Assembly (NCBI GenBank): GCA_035652075.1
Contig: DASREL010000107.1
Coordinates: forward strand, 12,385-76,384
From: Vicinamibacterales bacterium
GTDB lineage: Bacteria > Acidobacteriota > Vicinamibacteria > Vicinamibacterales > CAVVIG01
Direction of reading: 5' to 3'
DNA length: 64,000 bases
In this document: positions 2,976-36,037 of the stretch, piece after piece
How the letters are laid out: every line of letters begins with the position of its first letter
Numbering within the stretch: the stretch's first letter is position 1
The notes under the pieces: generated by a model
Told to the model about the DNA's origin: nothing
Seen by the model: the letters and a program-made list of their open reading frames with translations, nothing else
Databases searched by the model: none
Position numbers and translations under genes: made by a program

Positions 2976-4418
2976 ATGTACCAAGACCTGTCTGATTTCT
3001 TGGCGGATCTCGACCGCCGCAAGCTGCTCGCGCGCATCACCGATCCCGTCAGCCCCAATCTCGAGATCGCCGCGGTCACCGATCGCGTCTGCAAGATGCC
3101 TGGCGGCGGACCGGCGCTGCTGTTCGACGCGCCGACCGGCTACGACATCCCCGTTGCCTCGAACGTGTACGGCTCGCTGGAGCGCATGTGTCTCGCGCTG
3201 GGCGTGAAGGCGCTGGACGATCTCGCATCCGAGATCGACGAGTTGATGACGCCGCAGATGCCCGAAGGGATCATGGACGCGCTGAAGATGCTGCCGATGG
3301 TCGGCCGCCTGCGCGATCTGATGCCGAAGACGGTGAAGGATGCGCCCTGTCAGGAAGTCGTCGACAAGAACGCGCCCCTCGACTCGCTGCCGATCCTGAA
3401 ATGCTGGCCCGAGGACGGCGGGAAATACATCACGTTCCCGCTCGTGTTCACCAAAGATCCCGAAACCGGCATGCGCAACATCGGCACGTATCGCATGCAG
3501 GTGTACGACGGACGCTCGACGGGGATGCACTGGCAGCGTCACAAGGGCGGCGCGCAGCACTATCGCGTCGCCGAGCGCCTCGGGAAGCGACTCGACGTCG
3601 CGGTGGCGCTCAGCGCCGAACCGGCGTTGCCGTACTGCGCGACGGCGCCGATGCCGGAGGGACTCGACGAGCTGTTGCTCGGTGGATTCCTGTCGCGGAA
3701 GCGGATCGAGATGGTGAAGTGCGTCACCGTGGATCTCGAGGTCCCGGCGAGTTCGCACTTCGTCCTCGAGGGTTACGTCGAGCCGGGCGAACGCCGGCGC
3801 GAAGGGCCGTTCGGCGATCACACCGGCCTCTACTCGCAGCCCGACGACTTCCCGGTGTTCCACCTGACGTGCATCACGCGTCGGAAAAAGCCCACGTACC
3901 TGACGACGGTCGTCGGCGTGCCGCCGATGGAGGATTACTACCTCGGGCTGGCGAGCGAGCGGATCTTTCTGCCGATGATCAAGAAAACGCTGCCCGAGAT
4001 CGTCGACATGCATTTTCCAGCCGAGGGCATCTTCCACAATCTCGTGATCGTGTCGATCGACAAGCGGTATCCCGGTCACGCGCGCAAGATCATGAACGCG
4101 TTCTGGGGACTCGGTCAGCTGATGTTCTCGAAAACGATCATCGTCGTCGACAAGGATGTCGACGTCCACAATCTGAGCCAGGTCGCGTGGATCGTCGGCA
4201 CGCACTACGACCCGCTCCGCGACATCCAGATGACCAAAGGGCCGGTCGACGACCTCGACGATGCGGCGGATTTGCCGGCGTATGGAGGGAAGATGGGCGT
4301 CGACGCGACGAAGAAGTGGGCGAGCGAAGGGTACACGCGCAATTGGCCGGCTCGGGTCTCGACCACCGAAGCCGCCGGCCGCCGCGCCGCCGAAATCCTC
4401 TCTCGCCTGCGTATGTAG
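2976..4418 (+). CDS. UbiD-family decarboxylase (menaquinone-pathway type)
   Basis: MYQDLSDFLADLDRRKLLARI start, NVYGS, and GTYRMQV...HWQRHKGG motifs of UbiD. I prefer ATG 2976 over the track start at 2955, which lies inside the repeat. Confidence 0.85.
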   Translation: MYQDLSDFLADLDRRKLLARITDPVSPNLEIAAVTDRVCKMPGGGPALLFDAPTGYDIPVASNVYGSLERMCLALGVKALDDLASEIDELMTPQMPEGIMDALKMLPMVGRLRDLMPKTVKDAPCQEVVDKNAPLDSLPILKCWPEDGGKYITFPLVFTKDPETGMRNIGTYRMQVYDGRSTGMHWQRHKGGAQHYRVAERLGKRLDVAVALSAEPALPYCATAPMPEGLDELLLGGFLSRKRIEMVKCVTVDLEVPASSHFVLEGYVEPGERRREGPFGDHTGLYSQPDDFPVFHLTCITRRKKPTYLTTVVGVPPMEDYYLGLASERIFLPMIKKTLPEIVDMHFPAEGIFHNLVIVSIDKRYPGHARKIMNAFWGLGQLMFSKTIIVVDKDVDVHNLSQVAWIVGTHYDPLRDIQMTKGPVDDLDDAADLPAYGGKMGVDATKKWASEGYTRNWPARVSTTEAAGRRAAEILSRLRM

Positions 4419-7052: not shown

Positions 7053-7613
7053 TTGAGCTGTATGGCCACCACAACTGCAACAAACGGGTTCGTGATGCGG
7101 CTCATTGGCGCACTCTCGCTCGACCCGCCAATCTACGAAGAGGTCGAAGCAGACCCGACAGCCACCGGTCAGGCGCTGACCGTCGTCTTGCTGTCGAGCC
7201 TCGCGACCGGCTTCGGTGCGCGTGGTTTCGGCGACATCACGCTTCAAAGCATCCTGTTCTTCACGACGCTCGCGCTGCTCGGGTGGGCCGCGTGGGCGCT
7301 CCTCACGTTCGAAATCGGGTATCGACTGATGCCGACGCCGCAAACGCGCGCCGATGTCGGCCAGTTACTGCGGACCACCGGATTTGCGGCGACGCCGGGT
7401 CTCTTCCGGATTTTCGGCATCATGCCGGGCGCCACGTGGCCGGTGTTCGCGGCGACGTCTGTGTGGATGCTCGCGGCCATGGTCGTCGGCGTCCGTCAGG
7501 CGCTCGACTACACGAGCACCGCGCGCGCAATTGCCGTCTGCGTCCTCGGGTGGGCGCTCGCGCTCGCGATTGGTCTCGTCATCGGCTTGTTCTTCGGACC
7601 GACGCTGTCGTAA
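7053..7613 (+). CDS. Yip1-family integral membrane protein
   Basis: Motif LSLDPPIYEEVEADPTATGQAL followed by about five hydrophobic helices. The start could instead be ATG 7062. Confidence 0.65.
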   Translation: MSCMATTTATNGFVMRLIGALSLDPPIYEEVEADPTATGQALTVVLLSSLATGFGARGFGDITLQSILFFTTLALLGWAAWALLTFEIGYRLMPTPQTRADVGQLLRTTGFAATPGLFRIFGIMPGATWPVFAATSVWMLAAMVVGVRQALDYTSTARAIAVCVLGWALALAIGLVIGLFFGPTLS

Positions 7614-7623
7614 GCTCGATCGG

Positions 7624-8466
7624 TTGGATCAAGAGCTGGTCACGCTCGCGGCGTCGCACGACATCATCAGCATCGGCATGCTCGCAGACGACGTTCGTCG
7701 TCGCCTCCACGGGACGAAGACGACGTTCGTCCGCGTCGCGACGGTTTCTGCCGAACCTGGCGCGCCGACCACGATTCCGCCCGCCGCCGGCGAAGTACGC
7801 ATCACCGGCGCGCCGTCGGCGCGATCGAGTGCCGCCGAGCGCGTGCGCGAAGTGATCGCGGCCGCGAGCGGCGTCGCCGTGTCCGCGTTTTCGCTCGCGG
7901 ATCTCGAATCGCTCGCCGCGACCGAACAGATCGCGCTGCGTGCGCTTCTCGAAGAGTTGCGCGGCGCCGGTCTGGAGCTGATCGCCGAGGCGCCCATCAA
8001 CAAGCTGCAAGACGCACGGCGCTCGATCGAAGCCCTGAACATCGCCGGCCTCGCGCTGGCGCGGCTGACGGTCGATCAGTCGCCGTCCGCGGATCCGTTG
8101 CCCCTGCTCAAAGGTGTGTCAGACCTCCAGCGTGACGTCGCCGTGATTCGCGCGTTTGCGCCGCTGCCGCGCCGCGTCAATCCCGCGGCGCCGTCGACCG
8201 GCTACGACGATGTCAAGCGGGTCGCGCTGGCGCGGATCGTGTGCGACAACATTCCGTCGATCCAGGTGGACTGGTCGCTGTATGGACCGAAACTCGCGCA
8301 GGTCGCCTTGACAGTCGGGGCCGACGACGTGGACGCGATCGCCGCCGAGGACGATCAATCGCAAGGGCACCGGCGGTCGCCGCTCGAAGAAATCCGCCGG
8401 AACATCCGCGCGGCCGGGTTCGAACCAGTGGAGCGCTCCGGCCGCTTCGACGCCATTTCCGAATGA
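7624..8466 (+). CDS. MqnC/MqnE-like protein lacking the radical-SAM CxxxCxxC cluster motif
   Basis: Collinear similarity to the downstream MqnC/E-type enzyme. For example, DDVKRVALARIVCDNIPSIQVDWSLYGPKLAQVALTVGADDVD matches IDYLRTLAIARIVLDNFDNLQASWVTQGGKVGQLSLAFGANDMG. The whole protein has only one Cys. The start is uncertain (TTG 7624 or ATG 7678). Confidence 0.6.
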   Translation: MDQELVTLAASHDIISIGMLADDVRRRLHGTKTTFVRVATVSAEPGAPTTIPPAAGEVRITGAPSARSSAAERVREVIAAASGVAVSAFSLADLESLAATEQIALRALLEELRGAGLELIAEAPINKLQDARRSIEALNIAGLALARLTVDQSPSADPLPLLKGVSDLQRDVAVIRAFAPLPRRVNPAAPSTGYDDVKRVALARIVCDNIPSIQVDWSLYGPKLAQVALTVGADDVDAIAAEDDQSQGHRRSPLEEIRRNIRAAGFEPVERSGRFDAISE

Positions 8467-9257
8467 ACACAGTCAGGGTTGGCGCGGTTGGCTATCTGAA
8501 TGCCCGTCCGCTCGTGTACGGGCTCGACCGATATCCGCGGTTCGATGTTCGCTACGACGTCCCGTCCGAGTGCGCGCGGCTGCTGCACGCGCACGAGACG
8601 GACATCGGCTTGATCCCATCGATCGAATATCTGCGCGGCGGTCCGTATCGCATCGTTCCGGATCTCGCGATCGCCTCGAGCGGTCCGGTGGCCTCGGTCG
8701 CGATCTTCACGACGAAACCGATCGCCGACGTGACGTCGATTGCGATGGACACGAGCTCGCGCACGAGCGTCGCGTTGACGCGCGTGCTCTGCGCGAAGCA
8801 TTTCAAGATCAACCCGACGTTCGAATCGCGTGGACCCGATCTCGACGACATGCTCGCGCACGCGGATGCCGCGTTGATTATTGGAGACAATGCGCTCTTC
8901 CAGCAGCCAGCCGCCAACAGCCAGCCGCTGGAGAAGATCGATCTCGGCGATGTCTGGACGCGCTTCACGGGCCTGCCGTTCGTGTACGCATTCTGGGCCG
9001 GTCGCGCCGGCGCGCTGGCCGCGGACGATGTGGAGGCGCTGCAGCACGCGCGGAACGAAGGGGAACAGCGGCCCGAGCAGCTCGCGCGCGAATTTCTCGA
9101 AGGGATGCCCGAGCGCTGGGACACCGGCGGCCGCTACCTACGGCACAATATCAAGTACCATCTCGGCGAGGACGAGCGAGCGGGCCTCGAGACGTTCTAT
9201 CGCTACGCGGCCGAAGTCGGCGTCGTCCCGAGCGCGAAGGTTCCGGAATTTTTTTAA
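8463..9257 (+). CDS. mqnA: Chorismate dehydratase MqnA (futalosine pathway)
   Basis: MNTVRVGAVGYLNARPLVYGL and IGLIPSIEY motifs. ATGA overlap with the upstream ORF. Confidence 0.85.
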   Translation: MNTVRVGAVGYLNARPLVYGLDRYPRFDVRYDVPSECARLLHAHETDIGLIPSIEYLRGGPYRIVPDLAIASSGPVASVAIFTTKPIADVTSIAMDTSSRTSVALTRVLCAKHFKINPTFESRGPDLDDMLAHADAALIIGDNALFQQPAANSQPLEKIDLGDVWTRFTGLPFVYAFWAGRAGALAADDVEALQHARNEGEQRPEQLAREFLEGMPERWDTGGRYLRHNIKYHLGEDERAGLETFYRYAAEVGVVPSAKVPEFF

Positions 9258-10462
9258 TGGTCGATCGGATCGCGGACAAGGTTCGGGCGGGCGAGCGGGT
9301 GAGCGCGGACGAAGCGCTCGCGCTCTATCGTCACGCGCCGACGGCGTTGCTGGGTCGGCTCGCCGACGGTATCCGCGCGCGCAAACATCCGGACGGCTAC
9401 GTCACCTACATCATCGACCGCAACGTCAACTACACGAACGTCTGCGTGGCGAAGTGCAACTTCTGCGCGTTCTACCGTCCGGTCGGATCGTCGGAAGGGT
9501 ACGTCCTCGGCTTCGATGAGTTGTTCCGCAAGATCGACGAGACGATCGCCGTCGGCGGTGTGCAGCTGCTGCTGCAGGGCGGACACAATCCCGACCTGCC
9601 GCTGTCGTGGTACGAAGATCTCTTTCGCGCCGTCAAGGAACGGTATCCGACATTCAAGCTGCACGCGCTCTCGCCGCCGGAAGTCATCCATCTCTCGCGG
9701 CTGACGCAACTGCCGGTTCCCGCGATCATCGATCGGCTGATCGCCGCCGGTCTGGACAGCATCCCCGGCGGCGGAGCGGAAATCCTCGTCGACCGCGTTC
9801 GCAAAGAGCTGCACTGTTACGGCAAAGCGACCGCCGACGAATGGCTCGACGTGATGCGCCACGCGCACAGCAAAGGTCTGCGCACGACGGCGACGATGAT
9901 GTACGGCACCGTCGAGACCGACGAAGAGCGGCTCGAACACTTGCTGCGGCTGCGCGCGCTGCAGGACGAGACCGGCGGCTTCACCGCGTTCATCACGTGG
10001 AGTTATCAACCGTCGAACACCGAGCTGGCCGGCAGCGAAGCGACCGGTATCGACTACCTCCGCACGCTCGCGATCGCGCGCATCGTCCTCGACAACTTCG
10101 ACAACCTGCAGGCCTCGTGGGTGACGCAAGGGGGGAAGGTCGGTCAGCTGAGCCTCGCGTTCGGCGCGAACGACATGGGCAGCGTGATGATCGAAGAGAA
10201 CGTCGTCCGCGCTGCCGGCGCGGCGTATTGCATGGACGAAGTCGAAATCGTCCGCAACGTCGAGGACGCCGGGTTCATCCCGAAGCGCCGCAACATGCAC
10301 TACGAGATCCTGGGCGATCCGATTTGCCGCGAGCGCAGCGTGCCGCGGATGCTGGAGCTTGCGACCGCACGCGCCGACGGCGACACCCATGTGCCGGACG
10401 AACTCGTCAACTACGAGGCGCGCAGCCGCGCCGGCAAGCAGCTCCGTATCATTCGCAATTGA
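9257..10462 (+). CDS. mqnC: Radical SAM menaquinone enzyme of the MqnC/MqnE family (MqnC-like by motif)
   Basis: VTYIIDRNVNYTNVCVAKCNFCAFYR contains CxxxCxxC. TAATG overlap with mqnA. I cannot separate MqnC from MqnE without an alignment. Confidence 0.75.
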   Translation: MVDRIADKVRAGERVSADEALALYRHAPTALLGRLADGIRARKHPDGYVTYIIDRNVNYTNVCVAKCNFCAFYRPVGSSEGYVLGFDELFRKIDETIAVGGVQLLLQGGHNPDLPLSWYEDLFRAVKERYPTFKLHALSPPEVIHLSRLTQLPVPAIIDRLIAAGLDSIPGGGAEILVDRVRKELHCYGKATADEWLDVMRHAHSKGLRTTATMMYGTVETDEERLEHLLRLRALQDETGGFTAFITWSYQPSNTELAGSEATGIDYLRTLAIARIVLDNFDNLQASWVTQGGKVGQLSLAFGANDMGSVMIEENVVRAAGAAYCMDEVEIVRNVEDAGFIPKRRNMHYEILGDPICRERSVPRMLELATARADGDTHVPDELVNYEARSRAGKQLRIIRN

Positions 10463-11670
10463 TCCGATACCGCGCCGCCTGGGTCCTGCCGATCAGCGAG
10501 CCGCCGATTCGTGACGGTTGGATCGCGATCGATCGCGGCCGCGTGATCGCCACCGGACGCCGCTCGGCAAACACCAGCGAGGCCGAAATCGATCTCGGAT
10601 ACGTGGCGGTGATGCCCGGTCTCGTCAACGCGCACACCCATCTCGAGCTGTCGCACATGCGCGACGAGGTGCCGCCCGCACCCGCCTTCGTCAGTTGGAT
10701 TCGCGGCGTCATGGAGGCGCGGCGCAAGCGGCCCGATCCGATGTCGACGGAAATCCTCGACGGCATCGACATTGGGATCGCGGAAGCGATCGCGACCGGG
10801 ACCGCGGTCGTCGGCGACATCAGCAACACGCTCGCGACGTTCGCGCCCTTGAGCCGCAGTCCCCTTGCCGGCGTCGTCTTCTACGAGTTGATTCGCTTCA
10901 ACGCGGCGGACCCGCAGGCGGTGGTGGAGCAGGCCGCCGACGCGATCGCGAAGCTACCGGCCACCGATCGTGTCCGCGCGAGCCTTGCCGCGCATGCGCC
11001 GTATTCGGTCGCGCCGCTGATGTTTCGCGCGATTCGCGAAGCGGTCGACCGCGATCCGTTCGCGCCGACGAGCGTGCACCTGTCCGAGTCGCAGGAAGAA
11101 GTGGAGTTCATACGAACCGGCGGCGGCCCGTGGCGCGCGCTGCTCGAAGCCATCGGCTCCTGGGATCCGAAGTGGGTGCCGCCGGGCGGATCCCCGGTCC
11201 AGTTCCTGGACGACTGCGGATTCCTCGACGGACGCGTGCTGGCCGTCCACGGCGTGCAGATGTCGGGGGCGGACCTCGAACGGCTGGCGAAGAAGGACGT
11301 GACGCTCGTCACCTGTCCGCGCAGCAACGGCCACACGGGCGCTGGCGCGCCGCCGATCGCCGATTTCTATCGCTCAGGCGTGAAAGTCGCCGTCGGGACC
11401 GACAGCCTCGCCAGCACACCTGACTTGAACGTCTTTGCCGAGGTCGCGACGATGCGTGCGTTGGCGCCGGGAGTGCCAGCAGCGGCGCTCCTCGAGAGCG
11501 CGACGATCGTCGGCGCGCGGGCGCTCGGCTTCGACGCCGATTACGGCACGATCGACGCGGGGAAGCGGGCGCGGCTGCTCGCGGTCGACATCCCGATCGA
11601 GGTCGATGATGTGGAAGAATATTTGGTGAGCGGGATAGAGCAGCGGCAGGTGCGATGGATAGACGGATAG
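10459..11670 (+). CDS. Amidohydrolase-superfamily deaminase (candidate aminodeoxyfutalosine deaminase)
   Basis: TTG start gives MIRYRAAWVLP...MPGLVNAHTHLELS (HxH metal motif), then HLSES and TDSLAS. TTGA overlap with the preceding gene. The specific function is inferred from context. Confidence 0.7.
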   Translation: MIRYRAAWVLPISEPPIRDGWIAIDRGRVIATGRRSANTSEAEIDLGYVAVMPGLVNAHTHLELSHMRDEVPPAPAFVSWIRGVMEARRKRPDPMSTEILDGIDIGIAEAIATGTAVVGDISNTLATFAPLSRSPLAGVVFYELIRFNAADPQAVVEQAADAIAKLPATDRVRASLAAHAPYSVAPLMFRAIREAVDRDPFAPTSVHLSESQEEVEFIRTGGGPWRALLEAIGSWDPKWVPPGGSPVQFLDDCGFLDGRVLAVHGVQMSGADLERLAKKDVTLVTCPRSNGHTGAGAPPIADFYRSGVKVAVGTDSLASTPDLNVFAEVATMRALAPGVPAAALLESATIVGARALGFDADYGTIDAGKRARLLAVDIPIEVDDVEEYLVSGIEQRQVRWIDG

Positions 11671-26404: not shown

Positions 26405-27074
26405 CGACTGGCGCACGTCCGCTTCGAAACGATTTCAAGCCAAGCTGATCTCAATCCTCGGCTACCGCGCCATCAGCGCGCTCGCATCGACCTACCGCTG
26501 GAAGACCGAAGGGCTCGAGCACTACGACGCGATCGTCAAGAGCGGCCATCAGCCGGTCATGGCCTTCTGGCACGGCCGCATTCTTTCCGCCACCTACTAC
26601 TTCCGCCGCCGCGGCATCGTCGTCATCACGAGCGAAAACTTCGACGGCGAATGGATCGCGGGCATCATCGAGCGATTCGGATATGGGACCGCGCGCGGCT
26701 CGACGTCACGCGGCGCGCGCAAGGCGATGCTGCAACTCGTGCGCGACATGGCGGCGGGGAAGCCGGCGGGATTCACACTCGACGGTCCGCGCGGTCCCGC
26801 GCGTGTCGCGCAGCCGGGCGCCGTGTGGCTCGCGAAGATGACGGGCAATCCGGTCCTGCCGTTCCACCTCGAAGCCGATCGGGCATGGACGATGAACAGT
26901 TGGGATCGGACGCAGATTCCGAAACCGTTCGCGACCGTGTCGATGGCGATGGGCGAGCCGTTCACCGTGGCAGCGGATGCCGACGACGCGGGCTTGGATG
27001 CGGCCAGACGCGACCTCGAGGCTCGGCTTTCGGCGCTCGAGACGCGCGCACAGTCGTTGCTCGTCAATCCATAA
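26382..27074 (+). CDS. DUF374 lysophospholipid acyltransferase-like protein
   Basis: FWHGRIL...ITSENFDGEWIAGIIERFGYGTARGSTSRGA...DGPRGPA motif series of DUF374. Confidence 0.75.
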   Translation: MASSSRSNDWRTSASKRFQAKLISILGYRAISALASTYRWKTEGLEHYDAIVKSGHQPVMAFWHGRILSATYYFRRRGIVVITSENFDGEWIAGIIERFGYGTARGSTSRGARKAMLQLVRDMAAGKPAGFTLDGPRGPARVAQPGAVWLAKMTGNPVLPFHLEADRAWTMNSWDRTQIPKPFATVSMAMGEPFTVAADADDAGLDAARRDLEARLSALETRAQSLLVNP

Positions 27075-27100
27075 CCGGCGCAACGCCGTAGTTCAGACCG

Positions 27101-28354
27101 GTGCGGCGTCCCACACGGCCATGGCTGTTCGGCGTCATCAACGTGCCTTACGGAACGTGTTCCTCCGGGATCGTGACGACCGTGCTTCCGTTCCTCCTCC
27201 GGGCGCGCGGAGTATCGGTCGAGACGATCAGCTCGGTCGTCGCGGTCGCCGTAGTCCCGACGATCTGGTATTTCGTCTGGGCACCGCTGGTCGACGTCAA
27301 ATGGCGACGGCGGACATGGCTGGTCGCGTCCGCAATCGTCAGCGCGGCCTGCATGGTGGCCGCGCTGATGCTGCCGCTGCCGGGCGCGCTCCGGGCGATC
27401 ACGGTGCTGGTCGTCGGAGGGATCGCGATCAATCAACTCGTGGGTGCGGCCGTCGGCGGGCTCGTCGCGGACACGGTGCCAAACCACTGGCGTGGCGCCG
27501 CGGCTGGCTGGACGCAAGCGGCAAACCTGGGAGGCGGCGTCGTCGCCGGTGGCTTGCTGGTGTGGCTGTCGGCTCGCTCTCCGACCGCGTTTGTTGCGAT
27601 GGTGGCCGGACTTCTGATCGTGCTGCCGTCGCTGCCGGTGTTGTCTGTCGACGAACCGCCCCCTGCCGGTCGTGGCGCGCGCGAGCATTTCGGGCTGATG
27701 CTCCGAGACTTGAGGATTACGATCCGCAGCCCGCGCGTGTGGCTCGGATTCGCGTGGTTTCTCAGTCCGGTCGGCGCCGGCGCGTTGATGAATCTCTTCT
27801 CGGCGATCGCCGTCGATTACCACGCGTCCTCGACGGCGGTCGCTCTCGGTATCGGCGTATTCAGCGGGTTGGTAACGGCGGTTGGCGCGCTGGTCGGTGG
27901 TTTCGCCTGCGATCGATTCGATCGGTGGTTGGTCTACCCGGTGGCGGGATTGTTGTCGGCCGTGTGCGCCGGCGGCATGACGGTCGCGCCGCTCACGCCG
28001 ACTGTGTACGTGGTCGGCGCCAGCGCCTATTCATTTGCGTCTGGATTCGGTTACGCGACGTTCAGCGCGCTCGCGTTCGACCTGCTCGGTGACGGTGGCG
28101 CGGCCGCCGGCACACGGTCGGCGCTGTTCGTGTCGGCCGCCAACGTACCGCTCGCATACATGACCTGGGTTGATGGCGTCGGCCACTCGCGATTCGGCGT
28201 GCGAGGGTTGCTTGCATTCGACTCGATCAGCAATGTTTTGTCGTCACTGATGCTGATGGTATTTCTCGTCTGGTTGCGCCAATCGAAGGCGTCTATTTGT
28301 TCTGCCGATCGCGCAGTCGCCGCTTCCACTCGTTGTCGCGCCGCCAACGCTTGA
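27101..28354 (+). CDS. MFS transporter, AmpG-like
   Basis: About 12 hydrophobic segments. WAPLVDVKWRRRTW resembles the AmpG loop motif. Confidence 0.7.
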   Translation: MRRPTRPWLFGVINVPYGTCSSGIVTTVLPFLLRARGVSVETISSVVAVAVVPTIWYFVWAPLVDVKWRRRTWLVASAIVSAACMVAALMLPLPGALRAITVLVVGGIAINQLVGAAVGGLVADTVPNHWRGAAAGWTQAANLGGGVVAGGLLVWLSARSPTAFVAMVAGLLIVLPSLPVLSVDEPPPAGRGAREHFGLMLRDLRITIRSPRVWLGFAWFLSPVGAGALMNLFSAIAVDYHASSTAVALGIGVFSGLVTAVGALVGGFACDRFDRWLVYPVAGLLSAVCAGGMTVAPLTPTVYVVGASAYSFASGFGYATFSALAFDLLGDGGAAAGTRSALFVSAANVPLAYMTWVDGVGHSRFGVRGLLAFDSISNVLSSLMLMVFLVWLRQSKASICSADRAVAASTRCRAANA

Positions 28355-28421
28355 ACGCATCCCACGCGAAGACGCCCGCGATGAACAGGGCGACCACGGT
28401 CAGCGGCAACACGTAGTCCAC
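28293..28421 (-). CDS. Possible 42-aa single-TM micro-protein, translationally coupled to the zinc-ribbon ORF
   Basis: The GTG overlaps the TAG of the upstream ORF (TAGTG). It encodes VDYVLPLTVVALFIAGVFAWDAFKRWRRDNEWKRRLRDRQNK. The frame is GC3-rich. It overlaps the MFS 3' end convergently. Confidence 0.35.
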   Translation of the reverse strand: MDYVLPLTVVALFIAGVFAWDAFKRWRRDNEWKRRLRDRQNK

Positions 28422-28717
28422 TACCGATCGTTCCTTTTCATGATGAGGTGATCGCAGTCCAGACAGCGGAAGTACTGGATGCGTGACTGGGCCGACGAGG
28501 CGCCAGCGCGGCGAATGTTCTCGCCGCCGCATGCCGGGCAGGTCGTTGCCGTCTTCTGCGGCGAGTCGCTGCCGCCGACGATGCCCATATGTCCGCAGCT
28601 CTCGCAGCGGATGAGGGTACCGCCAGTGGCCGGGTCGATGCCGAGCGCTCGCGTCGACTGTCCCGCGCACTTCGCACAGGGAGGTAATGATGAGCTATCG
28701 ATAGGACATATACTACC
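28421..28717 (-). CDS. Double zinc-ribbon ORF (four CxxC motifs) without a canonical start for its full length
   Basis: Not in the ORF track. The minus frame is open from 28717 to TAG 28423-28421. It encodes ...PPCAKCAGQSTRALGIDPATGGTLIRCESCGHMGIVGGSDSPQKTATTCPACGGENIRRAGASSAQSRIQYFRCLDCDHLIMKRNDR. GC3 bias is strong throughout. The only canonical start is ATG 28588, downstream of the first two CxxC motifs. Confidence 0.5.
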   Translation of the reverse strand, partial: GSICPIDSSSLPPCAKCAGQSTRALGIDPATGGTLIRCESCGHMGIVGGSDSPQKTATTCPACGGENIRRAGASSAQSRIQYFRCLDCDHLIMKRNDR

Positions 28718-28752
28718 TCAAAACTCGTTATAGTCCTATATAGTCATATAAA

Positions 28753-29433
28753 TTACCAACTAATGGGATGCCTGTTGCTGAAAAATTGCCCGGTCGGGCC
28801 GTTGGCTGGCTGCAGGGCGAGCCAGACAATCGTATCAGCGCCCTGCTCGACCGAGGTCGGGGCCCCCGGGCCACCCATCCGCGTTCGAACCCAGCCCGGA
28901 TTCACGCTGTTGACGAGGACGCCCATGCCGCGAGTGGCAGCGGCGAGTTGCACGGTGAATGCGTTCAGCGACGCCTTCGAGATCGAATACGCCGGCGCAT
29001 ACGTGCCCATCGACGAGAGCTGGCCGGCGGCCGAGGACACGTTGACGACCGATCCCGTGCGCCGCTCGACCATGCCTGGGACGAACGCCTGCGCGACCGC
29101 AATGGCGCCAAACACATTCGTTTCGAACGTCATGCGAAACTCGTCGATCGGGGTGGCGAGCAGGTCGCGGTCTTCGCCAATCAACACCGCCGCGTTGTTG
29201 ACGAGGATGTCGACGCGACCGAACTCGGCGAGGACAGTCCGCTTGCACGCGGCAATGCTGTCCGCGTTCGTGACGTCGAGGACGACGTCCACGTGACCAG
29301 GGTCACGTCCGGTCTTGATCACCGTCACGCCGGCGGCGGCGAGTTGTCTGGCCACCTCGAGTCCGATGCCGCGATTGGCGCCGGTGACGAGCGCGATTTT
29401 CACGGTAGGATCACTCCCACGCATGTCCGTCAT
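28753..29433 (-). CDS. SDR-family oxidoreductase
   Basis: KIALVTGANRGIGLE, NNAA, YSISKAS. The start may be GTG 29403 rather than ATG 29433. Confidence 0.85.
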   Translation of the reverse strand: MTDMRGSDPTVKIALVTGANRGIGLEVARQLAAAGVTVIKTGRDPGHVDVVLDVTNADSIAACKRTVLAEFGRVDILVNNAAVLIGEDRDLLATPIDEFRMTFETNVFGAIAVAQAFVPGMVERRTGSVVNVSSAAGQLSSMGTYAPAYSISKASLNAFTVQLAAATRGMGVLVNSVNPGWVRTRMGGPGAPTSVEQGADTIVWLALQPANGPTGQFFSNRHPISW

Positions 29434-30454
29434 TGTGATCCATTCCGATCGTTTTGCGGAACACCAGACGCCTCCCGGTCACCCGGAGCGGTCCGAACGT
29501 GCCGAGGTGTTCGACGCGGTCGCCTCGAAGTGGGCCGGCAAGGGGATTGAGGTGGTCGCGCCGCGACTCGCGACGCGCGAGCAACTCGCGCGCGTGCACG
29601 ACGTCGATTACATTCGTCGGATATCCGAGACGACGGGGCGTGCGCAAGCGCTCGATCCCGATACCTACACGTCGCCGGACTCGTACGAGGTCGCGCTGTT
29701 GGCCGCCGGTGCGGCCATCGACGCCGTCGAGCGAGTGATGGGTGGATCGCACCGCGCCGCGGTGGCGATGGTGCGTCCGCCCGGGCATCATGCCGAGCGC
29801 GACCGGGCGATGGGCTTCTGCGTGTTCAACAACGTGGCGGTGGCGGCCGCGCACGCGCACACGCTCGGCGCGGCGAAGGTGGCGATCGTCGACTACGACG
29901 TGCATCACGGCAACGGCACGCAGCACATCTTCGAACACGATAAACACGTCCTCTACGTGTCGACGCATCAGTATCCGTACTATCCCGGCACTGGCGCGGC
30001 CGACGAGATCGGTCTCGATCAGGCCGCCGGATTCACCGTCAACGTGCCGATGGAAGTGGGATCGGTCAACGAGGATTACCAACTCGTGTTCGCGCGGATC
30101 GTGACGCCGGTGCTGAAGCAGTTCGAGCCCGAACTCGTGATCATTTCGGCAGGGTACGACGCGCACGAACGCGATCCCCTCGGCGGCATGCGGGTCACGA
30201 CCGCCGCGTTCGGCGCGATGACGCTCGAGTTGCGCGCCGTGGCCGAAGAATGCTGCCGCGGACGCATCGTCGCCGTCACCGAAGGCGGCTACGACCTCGA
30301 AGGGCTCGGCACGTCGCTGGACGCGTCGATCGCGGTCCTCCACGCGCCGATGACCGCCCCCGAGTGGCCCGCGAGCGGCGTCGCCTCGTCGCGCGGACGT
30401 TTCGCGGTTGACGCGGTTCGTCAATCGCTCGGCGGGTACTGGAACTTACCCTGA
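29423..30454 (+). CDS. Histone deacetylase / acetoin utilisation (AcuC-like) family deacetylase
   Basis: HPERSER, RPPGHHA, DYDVHHGNGTQ, GGYD motifs. Confidence 0.85.
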   Translation: MSVIVIHSDRFAEHQTPPGHPERSERAEVFDAVASKWAGKGIEVVAPRLATREQLARVHDVDYIRRISETTGRAQALDPDTYTSPDSYEVALLAAGAAIDAVERVMGGSHRAAVAMVRPPGHHAERDRAMGFCVFNNVAVAAAHAHTLGAAKVAIVDYDVHHGNGTQHIFEHDKHVLYVSTHQYPYYPGTGAADEIGLDQAAGFTVNVPMEVGSVNEDYQLVFARIVTPVLKQFEPELVIISAGYDAHERDPLGGMRVTTAAFGAMTLELRAVAEECCRGRIVAVTEGGYDLEGLGTSLDASIAVLHAPMTAPEWPASGVASSRGRFAVDAVRQSLGGYWNLP

Positions 30455-30493
30455 CGATGTGCTACTGTCTCCTGTCGAAGCAGAAGGGGAGAC

Positions 30494-30811
30494 ATGGATC
30501 TGCCGCAGGGCACATTGGATCTGCTGATCCTGAAAGCGATCGCGCTCGAACCGCAGCACGGGTGGGCGATCTCGGAACGCATTCAGCAGTTCTCGAATAA
30601 CGCGCTGCGCGTCAATCAAGGTTCCCTCTATCCCGCGCTCCATCGTCTCGAACGCAAAGGCTGGATCAAAGCCGAGTGGGACGTCTCCGATAACAACCGC
30701 AAAGCGAAGTACTACGAGCTGACCGCGAAAGGGAAGCGGCAGCTCGCCGAGCAGACCGATGCATGGCGAGCGCTGACGGCTGCCGTTGGTCTGCTGCTGG
30801 ATCAGACGTAA
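30494..30811 (+). CDS. PadR-family transcriptional regulator (module 1)
   Basis: GTLDLLILKAIALEPQHGWAI...GSLYPALHRLERKGWIKAEW...KYYELTAKG. Confidence 0.9.
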   Translation: MDLPQGTLDLLILKAIALEPQHGWAISERIQQFSNNALRVNQGSLYPALHRLERKGWIKAEWDVSDNNRKAKYYELTAKGKRQLAEQTDAWRALTAAVGLLLDQT

Positions 30812-30866
30812 GCAGCCCTGAAGACTGCGCTACACACGAGGCGGCCCTGACGGGCTGCGCGACAAA
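30812..30866 (+). repeat. Two tandem copies of the 25-nt hairpin element GCAGSCCTGAAGGSCTGCGCTAC
   Basis: gcagccctgaagactgcgctacaca (30812-30836) and gcggccctgacgggctgcgcgacaaa (30841-30866). The second copy ends 2 nt before the permease ATG. Confidence 0.8.
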
Positions 30867-30868
30867 CG

Positions 30869-33484
30869 ATGCTGAGCGATCTGTTGTTCCGTCTACGTGC
30901 GCTGGTGCGCGGTCGTCGCCTCGACGAGGAGATGGCTGACGAGCTGCGCTTCCATCTCGAGCGCGAGATCGAGAAGCTCGTTCGGTCGGGAATGTCACGC
31001 GACGAGGCGACACGCCAGGCGCGTCTCGCTTTCGGGGGCATCGACCAGACAAAGGACGCGTGTCGTGATGCGCGCGGGATCTCGTTCGTCGAGACGCTGC
31101 TGCAGGACGTGCGCTACGGCGTCCGAGCGATGCGTCGGAGCCCGGCTTCTGCGATGGCGACAATCGTCACGATTGCGTTGTCGTCCGCCGCGATCGCGAC
31201 CGTGGCGAGTCTGGGCTACACATTGCTGTGGCGTCCGCTGACAGTCGATCGGCCGAACGAGGTGGTCGCCATCACCGCCGCACATGGACGTGCGAACGAC
31301 GGAATCGCCGCGTATCCCGTCTCGTATCCGGACTACGTATCGTTTCGCGATCGGACGACAACGCTCGCTGCGCTCGCGGCGCACTATCCGTTCGCGCCGC
31401 TATTCGTGACGGCAAACGGCACGGCGAGGGAAGTCAACGGCGCGGTCGTCTCCGCGAATTATTTTTCGCTGCTCGGCATCGAGCCAGAGCAGGGGCGCTT
31501 TTTTCACGCCGACGAGGACCGTGTGCCGGATCGCGATCGCGTCGCCGTCATCGGTCACGATTTCTGGCGGACATGGCTCAACGCGTCGCCAACGGCGATC
31601 GGATCGTCACTGACGGTCAATGGCGTACCCGTCACGATTATCGGCATTGCACCCGCGAGCGTTCCGATGCTGACGCCGGTGCGCGTCAACATCTATATCC
31701 CCACGATGATGCTGCGGGTCGGCTATCGGTGGTGCGATGCGCTCAACGACAACACGTGCAACACGCTGCAGATGGTCGGCCGGCTGGCGCCGGATCGCAC
31801 GCTCGAGGACGCGAACACCGAATTTGCGGCGATCCTGCCGGCGAAATGGAAAAGCGCGCCAATCGGCCAGAACCGCGGCGTCCTCGTTCGTCGTCCGCGC
31901 GGGATGTCCGAGGACGATGACGAGCCACGATTCGTGGCGATCCTCGCAGGCGCGGCCATCGTTCTCTGGATCGTCTGCTGCATCAACCTGGCCGGGCTGC
32001 TGACGGCGCAGTCATCGGCACGCGCACCCGAATTCGCGATCCGCGTGTCGCTCGGCGCCGGTCGCATCCGCATCATCCGCCAGGTCGTCACCGAGTCGTT
32101 GCTGCTCGCGACGATCGGCGGCATCGGCGGCGTTCTGGTGTCGCGCGGTTTCATCGCGGTGCTCGCACGCATGTTCTTCTCGACAGATGACGAAGGGCAT
32201 GTGCTGTTCTACGACTTCAGCCCGACAACGTGGATCGTCGTCGCGACGGTGGCGGCAGCGCTTGCTGCAGGGCTGATCTTCAGCGTGATTCCGGCACTCA
32301 ACGCGGTCAATCGAGCCAACGTCACGGCGGCGACACGAACGGCGAGCGGTCGCTGGTCGACGACGCGATGGCTGCTGGGCGCGCAGGCGGCCGCTGCCGT
32401 TGCGATGATCGGCACGGCAGCGCTGCTCTACGGAAGCGCGCGGATGATTCTCGCCGGCCGCCACTACGACACGTCTCACGTGGCATTGATGCGGCTTCGG
32501 CCGCGACTGCTGAAATACACGCCGGAACGGGCGCAGCGATTTCAGCACGACGTGATTCGTCGGCTTGCGGCGCTCCCGTCGGTCGAGTCCGCAAGCCTGG
32601 TTGGTGTGGGTGCTGTCCTCGGCGGCGGGACCGCGACGCTGAATACCCACATGCGCGTGCGCTACAACGAAATCGGCCCCGCCTATTTCGCCACGCTCAG
32701 GGCGCCGCTCGTCGCGGGCCGTGAGTTCGACGAGCGAGACACCCTGCAATCACCGCGAGTCGCGATCGTCAACGAAACGCTGGCGTCGCGGTTGGCGCCT
32801 GCAAGTCAAGCGCTGGGGGCAGCCGTGACCATTGACGGGACGACGTATCGGGTCGTCGGTGTTGTCGCGGACCTCACGCTGCAAGCGCGCAATCACGAGG
32901 CAGAGCCCTGGGCGTACACGCCGTTCTGGCAAAACGCTGGCGAGATCGACTCACGCCTGGCCGTTCGGGTCTCCGGCGATCCAGCTACGGCGCTGTCAGC
33001 GCTCGCACGCGAGGTCCACGCAGTCGATCCGGACGTGCCGATCGCCGAAACGATCACGCTGCCGACGCAAATGGAGGGTCTCACCCGCCCGATTCGGGTC
33101 GGCGCGGTGTTCGTCGGCTACGCCGCAGCGCTGGCGACGATGCTGACCGCGGTCGGCCTGTATGGTGCGCTCGCGTCGGCAGTCGCACGACGAACGAAAG
33201 AAATCGGCATCCGGCTCGCGCTCGGCGCACGGCGGCAGCAGGTCGTCGGGGCGATCGTGCGCGACGGGGTTCTTCTCGTGACGGTCGGCAGCATGGTCGG
33301 CATGCTGCTCGCTCGGGCCGCGTCGCGTGCCGTCGTCCACTTGTTGTACGGATCGCCGGCCGGCGACTGGATGCTGTTTGCCGCGGCCGCGCTGGCCGTC
33401 GTCACCGTTGGTGTGGTGGCATCGCTCCTCCCCGCACGCCGCGCGGCGGCCGTCGAACCGATTTCCGCGCTGCGCCAAGAGTAG
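30869..33484 (+). CDS. ADOP-type duplicated FtsX/MacB-like ABC permease (module 1)
   Basis: N-terminal cytoplasmic helix region (LRFHLEREIEKL...). Two blocks of 4 TM helices, each with a large periplasmic domain. C-terminal KEIGIRLALGA FtsX motif. No adjacent ATPase. Confidence 0.85.
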   Translation: MLSDLLFRLRALVRGRRLDEEMADELRFHLEREIEKLVRSGMSRDEATRQARLAFGGIDQTKDACRDARGISFVETLLQDVRYGVRAMRRSPASAMATIVTIALSSAAIATVASLGYTLLWRPLTVDRPNEVVAITAAHGRANDGIAAYPVSYPDYVSFRDRTTTLAALAAHYPFAPLFVTANGTAREVNGAVVSANYFSLLGIEPEQGRFFHADEDRVPDRDRVAVIGHDFWRTWLNASPTAIGSSLTVNGVPVTIIGIAPASVPMLTPVRVNIYIPTMMLRVGYRWCDALNDNTCNTLQMVGRLAPDRTLEDANTEFAAILPAKWKSAPIGQNRGVLVRRPRGMSEDDDEPRFVAILAGAAIVLWIVCCINLAGLLTAQSSARAPEFAIRVSLGAGRIRIIRQVVTESLLLATIGGIGGVLVSRGFIAVLARMFFSTDDEGHVLFYDFSPTTWIVVATVAAALAAGLIFSVIPALNAVNRANVTAATRTASGRWSTTRWLLGAQAAAAVAMIGTAALLYGSARMILAGRHYDTSHVALMRLRPRLLKYTPERAQRFQHDVIRRLAALPSVESASLVGVGAVLGGGTATLNTHMRVRYNEIGPAYFATLRAPLVAGREFDERDTLQSPRVAIVNETLASRLAPASQALGAAVTIDGTTYRVVGVVADLTLQARNHEAEPWAYTPFWQNAGEIDSRLAVRVSGDPATALSALAREVHAVDPDVPIAETITLPTQMEGLTRPIRVGAVFVGYAAALATMLTAVGLYGALASAVARRTKEIGIRLALGARRQQVVGAIVRDGVLLVTVGSMVGMLLARAASRAVVHLLYGSPAGDWMLFAAAALAVVTVGVVASLLPARRAAAVEPISALRQE

Positions 33485-33496
33485 AATTAGAGGTGG

Positions 33497-36037
33497 ATGA
33501 CCGAGTTCAAACCACAAGCCCTCGACAAGAAGTGGCAGCAGGCGTGGACTGACGCGAACGCGTTCGAAGTCCAGATCGATCCCTCGCGCGAGAAGTTCTA
33601 CACGCTCGAAATGTTCGCGTATCCGTCGGGCCACGCGCACGTCGGACACGTTCGCAATTACATCATCGGGGACGTCTGTGCGCGGACGAAGCGGATGCGC
33701 GGCTTCAACGTCCTCCATCCGTTCGGGTGGGACGCTTTCGGCCTGCCCGCCGAGAACGCCGCCATCAAGACCGGCACGCATCCCGAGGCCTCGACGCTCG
33801 CCAACATCGCCCACATGAAAGGGCAGTTGCAGCGCCTCGGCATCAGCTACGCGTGGGATCGCGAGATCGCGACCTGCCTGCCGGACTATTACAAGTTCAA
33901 CCAGTGGATTTTCCTCAAGATGTACGAGCGCGGGCTCGCCGTGCGCCGGCGCTCGACGGTCAACTGGTGTCCGAAAGACGAAACGGTCCTCGCCAACGAG
34001 CAGGTGATCGATGGAGCCTGCTGGCGCTGCGGGACGACGGTCGTCGCGCGCGAACTCGAGCAGTGGTTCTTCCGCATCACCGCATACGCCGACGAGTTGC
34101 TCCAAGGCCTCGACACGCTGAAAGAGTGGCCCGAAAAAGTCGTCGTCATGCAGCGCAACTGGATCGGCCGATCCGAAGGGGCGCGGGTCAAGTTCGCGAT
34201 TGCCGGCAGCCAGCAGCCAGCATCCGGCAGCGATGCGATCGAGGTGTTCACGACCCGTATCGACACGATCTTCGGCGCGACGTTCGTGCTGCTGGCGCCC
34301 GAGCACCCGCTGGTCGAGAGATTCGCCGCCGAAAGCAGCGATCCGAAAGGGTTCCGCGATCGCGCCGCGAAACTGCGCGCGACCGACCGCGAAGCGCGGC
34401 TGACCGGCGCGACGAAGGAAGGATTCGACACCGGACGAAAGGCCATCAACCCGTTCACGAACGAAGAGATTCCGATCTGGGTCGCCAACTTCGTGCTGGC
34501 TGAGTACGGCACCGGTGCGCTGATGGCGGTCCCCGCGCACGACGAACGCGACTTCGAATTCGCCAGGAAATTCAACCTGCCGATCCGCGTCGTCGTCACG
34601 CATGGCGACGACACGCCGGTGGCGGATTCGATGTCGATGGCGACGACCAACTACGGGACGCTTGTCAATTCGGGTCCGTGGAACGGCAAGCAGGCCCCCG
34701 CGGTGATGACCGAGATGATCCGCGACGCCGAATCGCGCGGCATCGGCAAGGGCGAGGTGCAGTACCGGTTGAAGGACTGGGGCATTTCGCGTCAGCGGTA
34801 CTGGGGCACGCCGATCCCGATGATCTACTGCGAGAAGGATGGCATCGTGCCGGTCCCGTACGCCGACCTGCCGGTGAGGCTGCCGAAGTTCGCGAGCTTC
34901 ACCGGTCGCGGCGACTCTCCGCTCGCGCAGGTGCCAGAATTCGTCAACGTCACGTGTCCAACGTGCGGCGGTCCCGCCAGGCGCGAGACCGATACGATGG
35001 ACACGTTCGTCGACTCGTCCTGGTATTTCCTGCGGTTCGCCGATCCGAAGAACAGCGAGCTGCCGTTCGATCCGGTGGCTGCCGGCTACTGGATGCCCGT
35101 CGATTTCTACAGCGGCGGCGTCGAGCACGCGATCCTGCACTTGCTGTATTCGCGGTTCTTCACGCGCGTCCTCCGCGACGTCGGCCTGGTGAACTTCGAT
35201 GAACCGTTCAAGCGACTGCTGACACAGGGGATGGTGCTGAAGAACGGCGCCGTCATGTCGAAGTCGAAAGGCAACGTCGTCGATCCCGACGACATGCTGC
35301 AGAAGTACGGCGCCGATGCGCTGCGTCTCTACGTCATGTTCGTGGCGCCGCCGGAGAAGGAAGTGGAGTGGAGCGATGCCGGCCTCGAGGGCAGCTTCCG
35401 CTTCCTCGTCCGCGTCTGGCGTATGGTCGATCACTGGTGCGAGACGATTGGCGGGGAAGGCATCCCGGCGTGCGGCGACGACTGCCTCGAGAGCGAACGC
35501 GCGCTGCGCCGGAAGACGCATCAGACGATCCAGCGCGTGACCGTTGACATCGAGGAACGGATGCACCTGAACACGGCCGTCTCGTCGCTGATGGAGCTCG
35601 TCAACGAGCTGTATGCGTTCAGCGAAACCACCGCGCACGGTGCGCCGACGAAGGCGGAGCCGGCCGCGGGACGCGTCGAGCGTCCGCAGACGATCGCGGC
35701 GCTGCGCGAAGCGATCGACGCGCTCGTCGTGATGATCTCGCCGTTCGCGCCGCACATGGCCGAAGAGCTGTGGCAGATGCTCGGTCATCCAGACACGCTG
35801 ACGAAGGCGAAGTGGCCGGCGTTCGATCCGGCGATCGCCAAGGCTGACGAAGTCGTCGTCCCGGTGCAGGTCAACGGCAAGGTGCGCGGCCGTGTCACCG
35901 CGCCCGCCGATGCGAGCGCGGATCAGCTGCGCGAGCTCGCGCTCGCCGATCCTGGCGTGCAAACGCACACGGCGGGGAAGACGGTGCTGAAGGTGCTCAT
36001 TGGGAAAGGACCCATCGTCAGTGTCGTTGTCAAATAG
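33497..36037 (+). CDS. leuS: Leucyl-tRNA synthetase
   Basis: [14 protein letters not shown] (HIGH) and VMSKSKGN (KMSKS). GAGGTGG Shine-Dalgarno sequence. Confidence 0.95.

Follow-up and report, generated by a model that had tools for sequence, protein, structure and literature searches.

We analysed a stretch of 64,000 nucleotides (nt) of DNA from a Vicinamibacterales bacterium (Acidobacteriota; GenBank assembly GCA_035652075.1, contig DASREL010000107.1, positions 12,385 to 76,384 of the forward strand), hereafter called the window, and focused on a minus-strand frame between 28717 and 28421. The frame is a genuine copy of an uncharacterised small tandem zinc-ribbon family, located in a lineage-specific accessory segment. 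Every relative of this gene that was read on DNA starts at an in-frame ATG, whereas the window copy has none. The explanation that we prefer, and to which we give about an even chance, is a lineage-specific loss of the start frame, which would have left a young pseudogene or a leaky, strongly down-tuned gene and not a recoding device. An ordinary mutation in an accessory gene is thus most likely, rather than a programmed ribosomal frameshift. An earlier sequence-only reading of the same DNA had raised such a frameshift as a speculative possibility, with ATA/ATC initiation or a truncated 55-aa protein as its alternatives. It did not consider the simplest reading, namely that the gene, an accessory one confined to this lineage, lost the register of its ancestral ATG by mutation. 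The features of the frame are given below, with the evidence for each in brackets.

28421-28717, minus strand: tandem zinc-ribbon frame (translation; phmmer coverage of residues 8-98; family hidden Markov model; AlphaFold model).
28595-28678, minus strand: N-terminal ("hidden") ribbon, CAKC...RCESCGH, with Cys14, Cys17, Cys38 and Cys41 of the 98-codon frame (score against the family model).
28454-28540, minus strand: C-terminal ribbon, CPAC...YFRCLDCDHL, with Cys60, Cys63, Cys85 and Cys88 (score against the family model; codon score; GC content at third codon positions, GC3).
28586-28588, minus strand: ATG, the sole canonical in-frame start, which would yield a single-ribbon product of 55 amino acids (aa), P0001 (listing of open reading frames, ORFs).

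The minus strand is open over 98 sense codons from 28717 to 28424, preceded by TGA (28720-28718) and closed by TAG (28423-28421), and the product of this frame is GSICPIDSSSLPPCAKCAGQSTRALGIDPATGGTLIRCESCGHMGIVGGSDSPQKTATTCPACGGENIRRAGASSAQSRIQYFRCLDCDHLIMKRNDR. Four CxxC pairs are encoded, CAKC (28678-28667), CESC (28606-28595), CPAC (28540-28529) and CLDC (28465-28454). Between 28717 and 28589 the ribbon frame is devoid of ATG, GTG and TTG, and the canonical start that the family has near its first Cys is therefore absent here. The first canonical start, ATG 28588, is positioned 3' of the first ribbon, which is why the ORF listing shows only the 55-aa ORF. The C half (28588-28424) has a codon score of +0.18 per codon and a GC3 of 0.84, while the codon score of the N half is -0.41 per codon. 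The sequence-only reading had picked out this hidden frame, its four CxxC pairs and its late first start, and all of their coordinates hold on the sequence.

An exhaustive phmmer scan of 1.84 billion representative sequences returned 41 hits. These include full-length relatives, which are proteins of 91-100 aa aligned across both ribbon halves. Three of them, P0002 (5.7e-12, query residues 12-96), P0004 (query 10-98) and P0005 (query 8-96), have E values of 6e-12 to 9e-11. These three and P0012, P0034, P0042 and P0043 share 30-40% identity with the frame over residues 8-98. A family hidden Markov model (HMM) was built from 12 relatives with the window sequence excluded; it scores the whole frame at 75.5 bits, the C half alone at 43.7 and the N half alone at 31.2, with the N half in register with the family N ribbon (HMM positions 5-39). 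Since the N ribbon is homologous to a protein family, the open frame does not owe its existence to chance, and as judged from sequence homology the hidden N-terminal ribbon is real. The family alignment comprises two CxxC-x20-21-CxxC repeats, the first marked by RCxxCGH and the second by Y[FLY]RCxxCxxL. The window copy retains eight of eight Cys and keeps all of the invariant family residues (R37, C38, C41, C60, C63, Y82, C85 and C88). Together, the phmmer scan, the alignment and the family HMM support the earlier claim of a real two-ribbon ORF, and place it in a family that carries both ribbons. The family sources that were traced are soil and other environmental metagenomes, and two members bear the JGI label 'transposase-like protein'.

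Additional searches were carried out at the protein and DNA levels. A word-indexed protein search returned only the window's own 55-aa stub (P0001), with no longer ATG-started version in the collection. When back-translated patterns were scanned against contigs from genomes and metagenomes, no relative could be confirmed among the matches listed, which appear to be random, and a wobble-degenerate DNA pattern of the ribbon gene had no match in metagenome contigs. The tblastn searches of 80 loci anchored on homologues of the neighbouring SDR gene, with the ribbon frame and with the downstream 42-codon ORF TM42 as queries, gave chance matches only.

An AlphaFold2 model based on the family alignment predicts two three-stranded ribbons, with a mean predicted local distance difference test score (pLDDT) of 82.8. 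Rpb9, TFS and TFIIS have the same architecture, consisting of two three-stranded zinc ribbons and a linker, and Rpb9 chains, from a subunit of eukaryotic RNA polymerase, were the top Foldseek matches. These matches are non-significant, with an E value of only 6e-3 and a template-modelling (TM) score of about 0.3, since the ribbons are not oriented comparably towards one another. Rpb9, TFS and TFIIS are eukaryotic and archaeal RNA polymerase subunits and cleavage factors, whereas the ribbon protein is bacterial, and the likeness seen in the model would be architectural only. The family profile matches the archaeal TFIIS-type ribbon 1qyp at an E value of 2.8e-5, while the TFS matches of family members are sub-threshold. 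No TFIIS-type acidic loop, in the form that we take the motif to have, was seen in the family alignment. The nearest solved structures thus show architecture in common and not family membership.

At the level of single ribbons, resemblances to NF047912 (ECs_2282), the N-terminal Zn ribbon of IS1/IS1595, FmdB (TIGR02605) and Zn_ribbon_8 were found at E values of 1e-6 to 1e-4. The scores stay below the curated cut-offs, with 28.5 versus 37 bits for NF047912 and 22.8 versus 34.4 bits for PF09723. Assignment to a defence system or a curated family was rejected, as the Pfam, NCBIfam and PADLOC matches are all sub-threshold and of a generic zinc-ribbon kind. With all curated matches under their cut-offs, the family is therefore uncharacterised. 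HVO_2753, an archaeal micro-protein with four C(P)xCG motifs, is likewise small and has four Cys pairs (PMC11241148), but its sequence matches the ribbon proteins only at chance level (E 0.027-0.36). The scan also detected long proteins, including P0003 (872 aa), P0006 (847 aa), P0029 (2567 aa) and others, with up to 11-12 separately matched ribbon-pair stretches, so the ribbon-pair module also serves as a tandem repeat there.

The DNA was read for seven distinct homologous genes (L081, L082-L084, L085/L086, L087, L089, L090 and L091). All seven start at an in-frame ATG, which in six of them lies 5-7 codons 5' of the first Cys. The N-termini of these six are MTTTPGPC, MTSVPGPC, MSTTPGPC, MSDQQAC, MPTTPGPC and MAPAQNC, and L087 has a longer N-terminal extension. 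None of the seven needs a frameshift or a non-canonical start. Of three apparent single-ribbon relatives, P0032 (L081 551-778) and P0039 (L082 1985-2203) were checked on DNA, the third being P0008. The public calls start too late, at a GTG and at an internal ATG respectively, and thereby remove the first CxxC; an in-frame ATG at L081 497 for P0032 and at L082 1922 for P0039 restores the full two-ribbon protein. The search among relatives that the sequence-only reading had named as a test thus revealed no orthologs with only the second ribbon among those checked, since P0032 and P0039 are start miscalls, and it showed that the relatives carry a normal ATG.

The lesion is reproduced in an independent assembly. 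A 48-kb megahit contig (L092, ENA ERZ27279688), reached via the PadR protein of the window, aligns with window positions 26494-34811 (8,318 nt) at 99.868% identity, with 11 single-nucleotide polymorphisms (SNPs) and no gaps. The two assemblies are identical across 28290-28760, and the lesion is therefore no sequencing artefact. A third variant is represented by a JGI contig of 6,388 nt and by a protein recorded from run SRR5581483; in both, the SDR sequence ends in HPINW where the window has HPISW. No source other than the JGI contig is on record for the 55-aa call. In a check of the window for indels, many ORFs of 800-980 codons were found intact, as were the mqn genes by Pfam. Frequent assembly indels in the window were rejected on the ground of these intact large genes, an argument later superseded by the independent L092 assembly.

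The region in which the family start would be expected contains the following features.

28695-28709, minus strand: four-codon mini-ORF ATG TCC TAT CGA TAG, encoding MSYR-stop (direct reading).
28716-28719, minus strand: GAGG, a Shine-Dalgarno (SD)-like tetramer (direct reading).
28700-28711, minus strand: in-frame near-cognate codons ATA (28711-28709, overlapping the ATG as ATATG) and ATC (28702-28700) (direct reading).
28705-28764, no strand assigned: AT-rich island that takes in the stop of SDR, the spacer between the two genes and the 5' part of the ribbon frame (GC scan).
28729-28748, no strand assigned: tandem 10-mers TATAGTCCTA/TATAGTCATA (repeat search).
28695-28704, no strand assigned: perfect 10-nt palindrome CTATCGATAG over the last mini-ORF codons and the stop (direct reading and repeat search).

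The ATG of the mini-ORF (28709) is one base out of register with the ribbon frame, and omission of T28697 leads into that frame at AGC 28696. This agrees with what the sequence-only reading had described, that is, GAGG followed after 6 nt by the mini-ORF, and a skipped T by which the ribbon frame is entered. GAGG precedes ATG 28709 by 6 nt, ATA 28711 by 4 nt and CGA 28700 by 15 nt. When the 73-nt island is shuffled with its dinucleotides preserved, a GAGG+ATG pair turns up in 5.9% of cases (p about 0.06); the pair is only suggestive, and its significance is weak. SD use is sparse among the genes of the window. In the family alignment, the Met of the relatives falls near codon 7 of the window's frame (at roughly 28699), within the stretch that holds the out-of-frame ATG 28709 and the in-frame ATA 28711 and ATC 28702.

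The GC content of 28705-28764 is 0.28, the minimum of all 60-mers in the window, compared with 0.38 for the runner-up and a window mean of 0.65. The region is thus indeed the most AT-rich of the window, as had been noted before, and the direct repeats and the palindrome reported for it were both recovered by repeat search. We infer that the island acts as a promoter and/or a translation-initiation region. No sigma-70 consensus match was found in the island, and no Rfam element was matched in the island or the start region. A 7-nt inverted copy of the tandem 10-mer motif, ATAGGAC (28701-28707), overlaps the mini-ORF. The motif has no further occurrence in the window, and its interpretation as a regulon operator was rejected for that reason. 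A strong leader hairpin was rejected as well, the RNA fold that pairs the repeat elements having a z value of only -1.8.

The predicted folding energies of the 60-nt segments around 28711, 28709 and 28702 are -10.6, -13.4 and -11.5 kcal/mol, respectively. Random 60-mers of the window served as reference (mean -19.1, standard deviation 5.1, 95th percentile -11.2 kcal/mol), and the weak folding at the three positions is near or above this 95th percentile. The 60 nt around ATG 28588, at -22.6 kcal/mol, are more structured than the window mean. Additionally, the first codons of the ribbon frame (ATA, TGT, CCT, TCA, TCA and TTA) are rare in the genome, a pattern that we read as usual at the 5' ends of genuine genes where the genome is GC-rich. 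The weak folding and the rare 5' codons therefore place the initiation region at the two-ribbon N-terminus and not at 28588.

As to which mutation occurred and what is translated, we infer the following. Either a 1-nt insertion or a 2-nt deletion within roughly 28706-28680 may have shifted ATG 28709 out of register, or the ATA at 28711 may have arisen by mutation from an ATG that was in frame. Ribosomes would still load on the unstructured AT-rich initiation region and begin at AUG 28709, where mostly MSYR would be made, with termination at UAG 28697. Leakage, either by near-cognate AUA/AUC initiation or by a rare spontaneous +1 slip, would then be the sole source of the two-ribbon protein, and TM42 could initiate from its own accessible AGGA-N10-GUG site. 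A mutation is favoured because of base rates: confirmed starts at codons outside the set AUG, GUG, UUG are very rare, and pseudogene clusters outnumber recoding clusters, at 4,010 versus 146 in a survey of frame transitions in 1,106 prokaryotic genomes (PMC3711429). When 13 sequences were scored by leave-one-out against the family, the N half of the window copy came out lowest, which on the sequence level may be taken as a weak hint of relaxed constraint.

Several observations weigh against a loss of the start. The 98-codon frame is fully open with all invariant family residues and eight Cys kept, so a pseudogene, if it is one, must be very young. The difference between N and C halves (-12.8 bits) is inside the family range, with P0034, for example, at -14.6 bits. 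Both the accessible AT-rich initiation region and the rare-codon 5' end are still present, an in-frame AUA is located 4 nt 3' of GAGG, and the TAGTG overlap with TM42 looks like a maintained translational coupling. Besides the near-identical strains, no relative exceeds 40% identity, and the mutation can therefore be neither dated nor polarised.

Because the frame is intact and the hint of relaxation is weak, two other readings keep some weight. The first, which we regard as a tentative possibility, is that near-cognate initiation is functional: the two-ribbon protein would be the normal product, made from AUA 28711 or AUC 28702, and the overlapping AUG mini-ORF would keep its expression low. 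Both codons lie within a few codons of the aligned family Met, and by the folding prediction both fall inside the accessible region, among the least structured 60-mers (-10.6 to -11.5 versus a mean of -19.1 kcal/mol). The frame is intact with its conserved residues complete, and the second strain (L092) has the identical arrangement. A precedent is offered by E. coli, in which initiation at AUA, AUC, AUU and CUG reaches 1-2% of that at AUG, and infC and pcnB (AUU) are the only confirmed near-cognate cases (10.1101/063800). By analogy with these two genes, the in-frame AUA or AUC could act as a weak, regulatable start; the difference is that here a strong AUG overlaps in another frame and no relative shares a near-cognate start. 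This AUG has the better codon and the better SD spacing and is the expected winner. Moreover, all relatives read on DNA use ATG, in-frame ATA and ATC are expected by chance in a stretch of 28% GC, and confirmed natural starts of this kind are extremely rare.

The second reading, which we consider unlikely, is that the 55-aa single C-terminal ribbon is functional, being translated from ATG 28588 and coupled via TAGTG to TM42, with the upstream ribbon a fossil. ATG 28588 is the only canonical in-frame start and was called by the JGI pipeline, and the C half is the better one in codon score (+0.18 versus -0.41 per codon), GC3 (0.84) and family score. Nevertheless, this ATG is situated in a GC-rich stretch with more structure than average (-22.6 kcal/mol) and no clear SD, and 120 nt separate it from the AT-rich initiation region, which is found upstream at the N-terminus of the two-ribbon protein. 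The checked family includes no single-ribbon members, P0032 and P0039 being miscalls.

A programmed +1 frameshift like that of prfB, as suggested by the sequence-only reading, is very improbable. Translation would begin at AUG 28709, proceed through MSYR and skip U28697 at CGA-UAG-C to give MSYR-SSSLPPC..., the weak UAG-C stop setting the level. Just as improbable is a role of this shift as a translational gate, in which +1 recoding, with neither P-site re-pairing nor an SD stimulator, would fix how much two-ribbon protein is made relative to TM42. One skipped base does connect a well-placed AUG, with GAGG 6 nt upstream, to the ribbon frame; the N-terminus of the product would have 10 residues before the first Cys, near the family range; and the arrangement is real and common to two strains. 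However, the P-site codon is CGA and not CUU, and under standard codon-anticodon rules the Arg tRNA on CGA cannot re-pair on the +1 codon GAU. The only SD-like element, GAGG, lies 15 nt 5' of the P-site codon and not 3 nt. The stop is UAG and not UGA, TAG being ordinary here (13 of 45 stops), and the start region offers neither an Rfam element nor a strong structure (z = -1.8). None of the seven family members read on DNA needs a shift. In prfB, an SD-like AGGGGG stands 3 nt before the CTTT slippery site, which is followed by a TGA stop and then C, the stop being TGA in >99% of genomes (10.1101/2024.09.24.614795). The likeness to prfB consists in the C (28694) right after TAG, a weak termination context (10.1101/2024.09.24.614795), placed where a one-base forward shift restores a long frame. 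The window differs from prfB in the missing CUU-U, the missing SD-like element at 3 nt, the UAG stop, the position of the shift at mini-ORF codon 5 and the lack of conservation in homologues. One of five prfB-type features, the C after the stop, is thus present, and the slippery codon, the SD spacing, a UGA/UAA stop and conservation are not.

Finally, a sequencing or assembly artefact, that is, a false indel of 1 nt located between ATG 28709 and the codon of the first Cys, would fully account for the frame relation by a single-base error, and some related metagenome-assembled genomes (MAGs) do come from long-read data, but this explanation is largely refuted and has hardly any probability left, given the independent k141 megahit contig (ENA, short-read-style) that carries its 11 SNPs elsewhere and is identical over 28290-28760, the third variant that likewise gives only the 55-aa call, the absence of homopolymers >3 between the ATG and the Cys codon, and the large genes intact throughout the window.

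As it stands, the locus is mainly an annotation lesson, since three pipelines missed a two-ribbon gene: the first annotated the 55-aa stub, the second annotated the 42-aa ORF alone, and the third apparently annotated neither. It also brings to light a small uncharacterised tandem zinc-ribbon family. Losing a start frame is nothing out of the ordinary, though the small-protein family in which it would have happened is interesting. Detection of the full-length protein would instead reveal that an uncultured soil acidobacterium depends on non-canonical decoding, for which natural examples are rare, by the route of AUA/AUC initiation in competition with the overlapping AUG or by an unconventional +1 shift. 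The three translation routes predict three distinct N-terminal peptides, Met-Cys-Pro-Ile-Asp from AUA, Met-Asp-Ser-Ser from AUC and MSYR-SSSLPPCAK across the +1 shift.

Two further features concern the surroundings of the ribbon gene.

28293-28421, minus strand: TM42, a 42-codon ORF encoding VDYVLPLTVVALFIAGVFAWDAFKRWRRDNEWKRRLRDRQNK, with one hydrophobic helix and a basic tail (codon score, GC3).
27075-28752, no strand assigned: lineage-specific segment with the MFS gene, TM42, the ribbon gene and the AT-rich island, between the conserved DUF374 and SDR genes (synteny).

The GTG of TM42 (28421) overlaps the ribbon stop as TAGTG (28423-28419), and its own stop is the TAG at 28295-28293. TM42 has a codon score of +0.53 per codon, with an average of 0.49 for the true genes of the window, and a GC3 of 0.88. 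Its start is preceded by AGGA 10 nt upstream and shows weak predicted local structure (-13.3 kcal/mol). The ENA pipeline independently called TM42 as a 42-aa gene in L092. TM42 is a real gene, and the micro-TM ORF proposed earlier is supported by its strong coding signature and by the second pipeline's own call.

TM42 and the convergent MFS gene (27101-28354, plus strand) overlap at their 3' ends, TM42 with its final ~20 codons. Within the overlap (28293-28354, ~20 codons each), the signal of the MFS frame is weak (GC3 0.64, score -0.02) and that of the TM42 frame is strong. Of the 11 SNPs that distinguish L092 from the window, three fall within 12 nt (28236-28247), ~50 nt past the TM42 stop; all three are non-synonymous in MFS codons 379-383, changing V to A, L to S and L to V. 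The frame of the mini-ORF is also that of TM42 and is open past its TAG for 133 codons (28694-28296), a stretch that includes a listed 125-aa ORF (28293-28670). An ATG-initiated readthrough of 138 codons into TM42 was rejected, the codon score of this frame across the ribbon gene being -0.8 to -0.9 per codon. Among the seven family loci, only L091 has an overlapping downstream 42-aa ORF, which is absent from the other six. This ORF, MASGVSPSYLRWRWRTSYRLRVTVYVILAWVAAVGVAVALKL (L091 890-1018), overlaps the 3' end of the ribbon homologue P0034 (612-905) and has a basic stretch and one hydrophobic helix in the reverse order to TM42, and the two are not alignable.

Judged by its SDR, HDAC and DUF374 neighbours, the genome falls close to the Vicinamibacterales (Acidobacteriota), with 62-69% identity for SDR and 73-82% for HDAC. 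In the syntenic loci L002, L003 and L006, merely about 100-310 nt separate SDR from the convergent DUF374 gene, and at the same junction L001 carries two unrelated genes of 265 aa and 278 aa. As the MFS-TM42-ribbon segment is missing in the syntenic relatives, 27075-28752 is accessory DNA that is specific to this lineage and sits at a junction of variable content. Among the SDR homologues, the one on the longest contig, P0047 (71% identity, L094), showed no synteny. The HDAC homologue of L006 (4935-5923), from an uncultured Acidobacteriota MAG, was matched as two adjacent tblastn segments, 5923-5252 and 5249-4935, which suggests that the record contains a frameshift or an indel from its assembly.

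Elsewhere in the window, the region 7354-11670 has Pfam matches to the CofH/MqnC C-terminal region, radical SAM, VitK2_biosynth and amidohydrolase, and we read this cluster as genes for futalosine-type menaquinone biosynthesis. The cluster contains long overlapping alternative ORFs, and its codon scores lie below those of the rest of the window.

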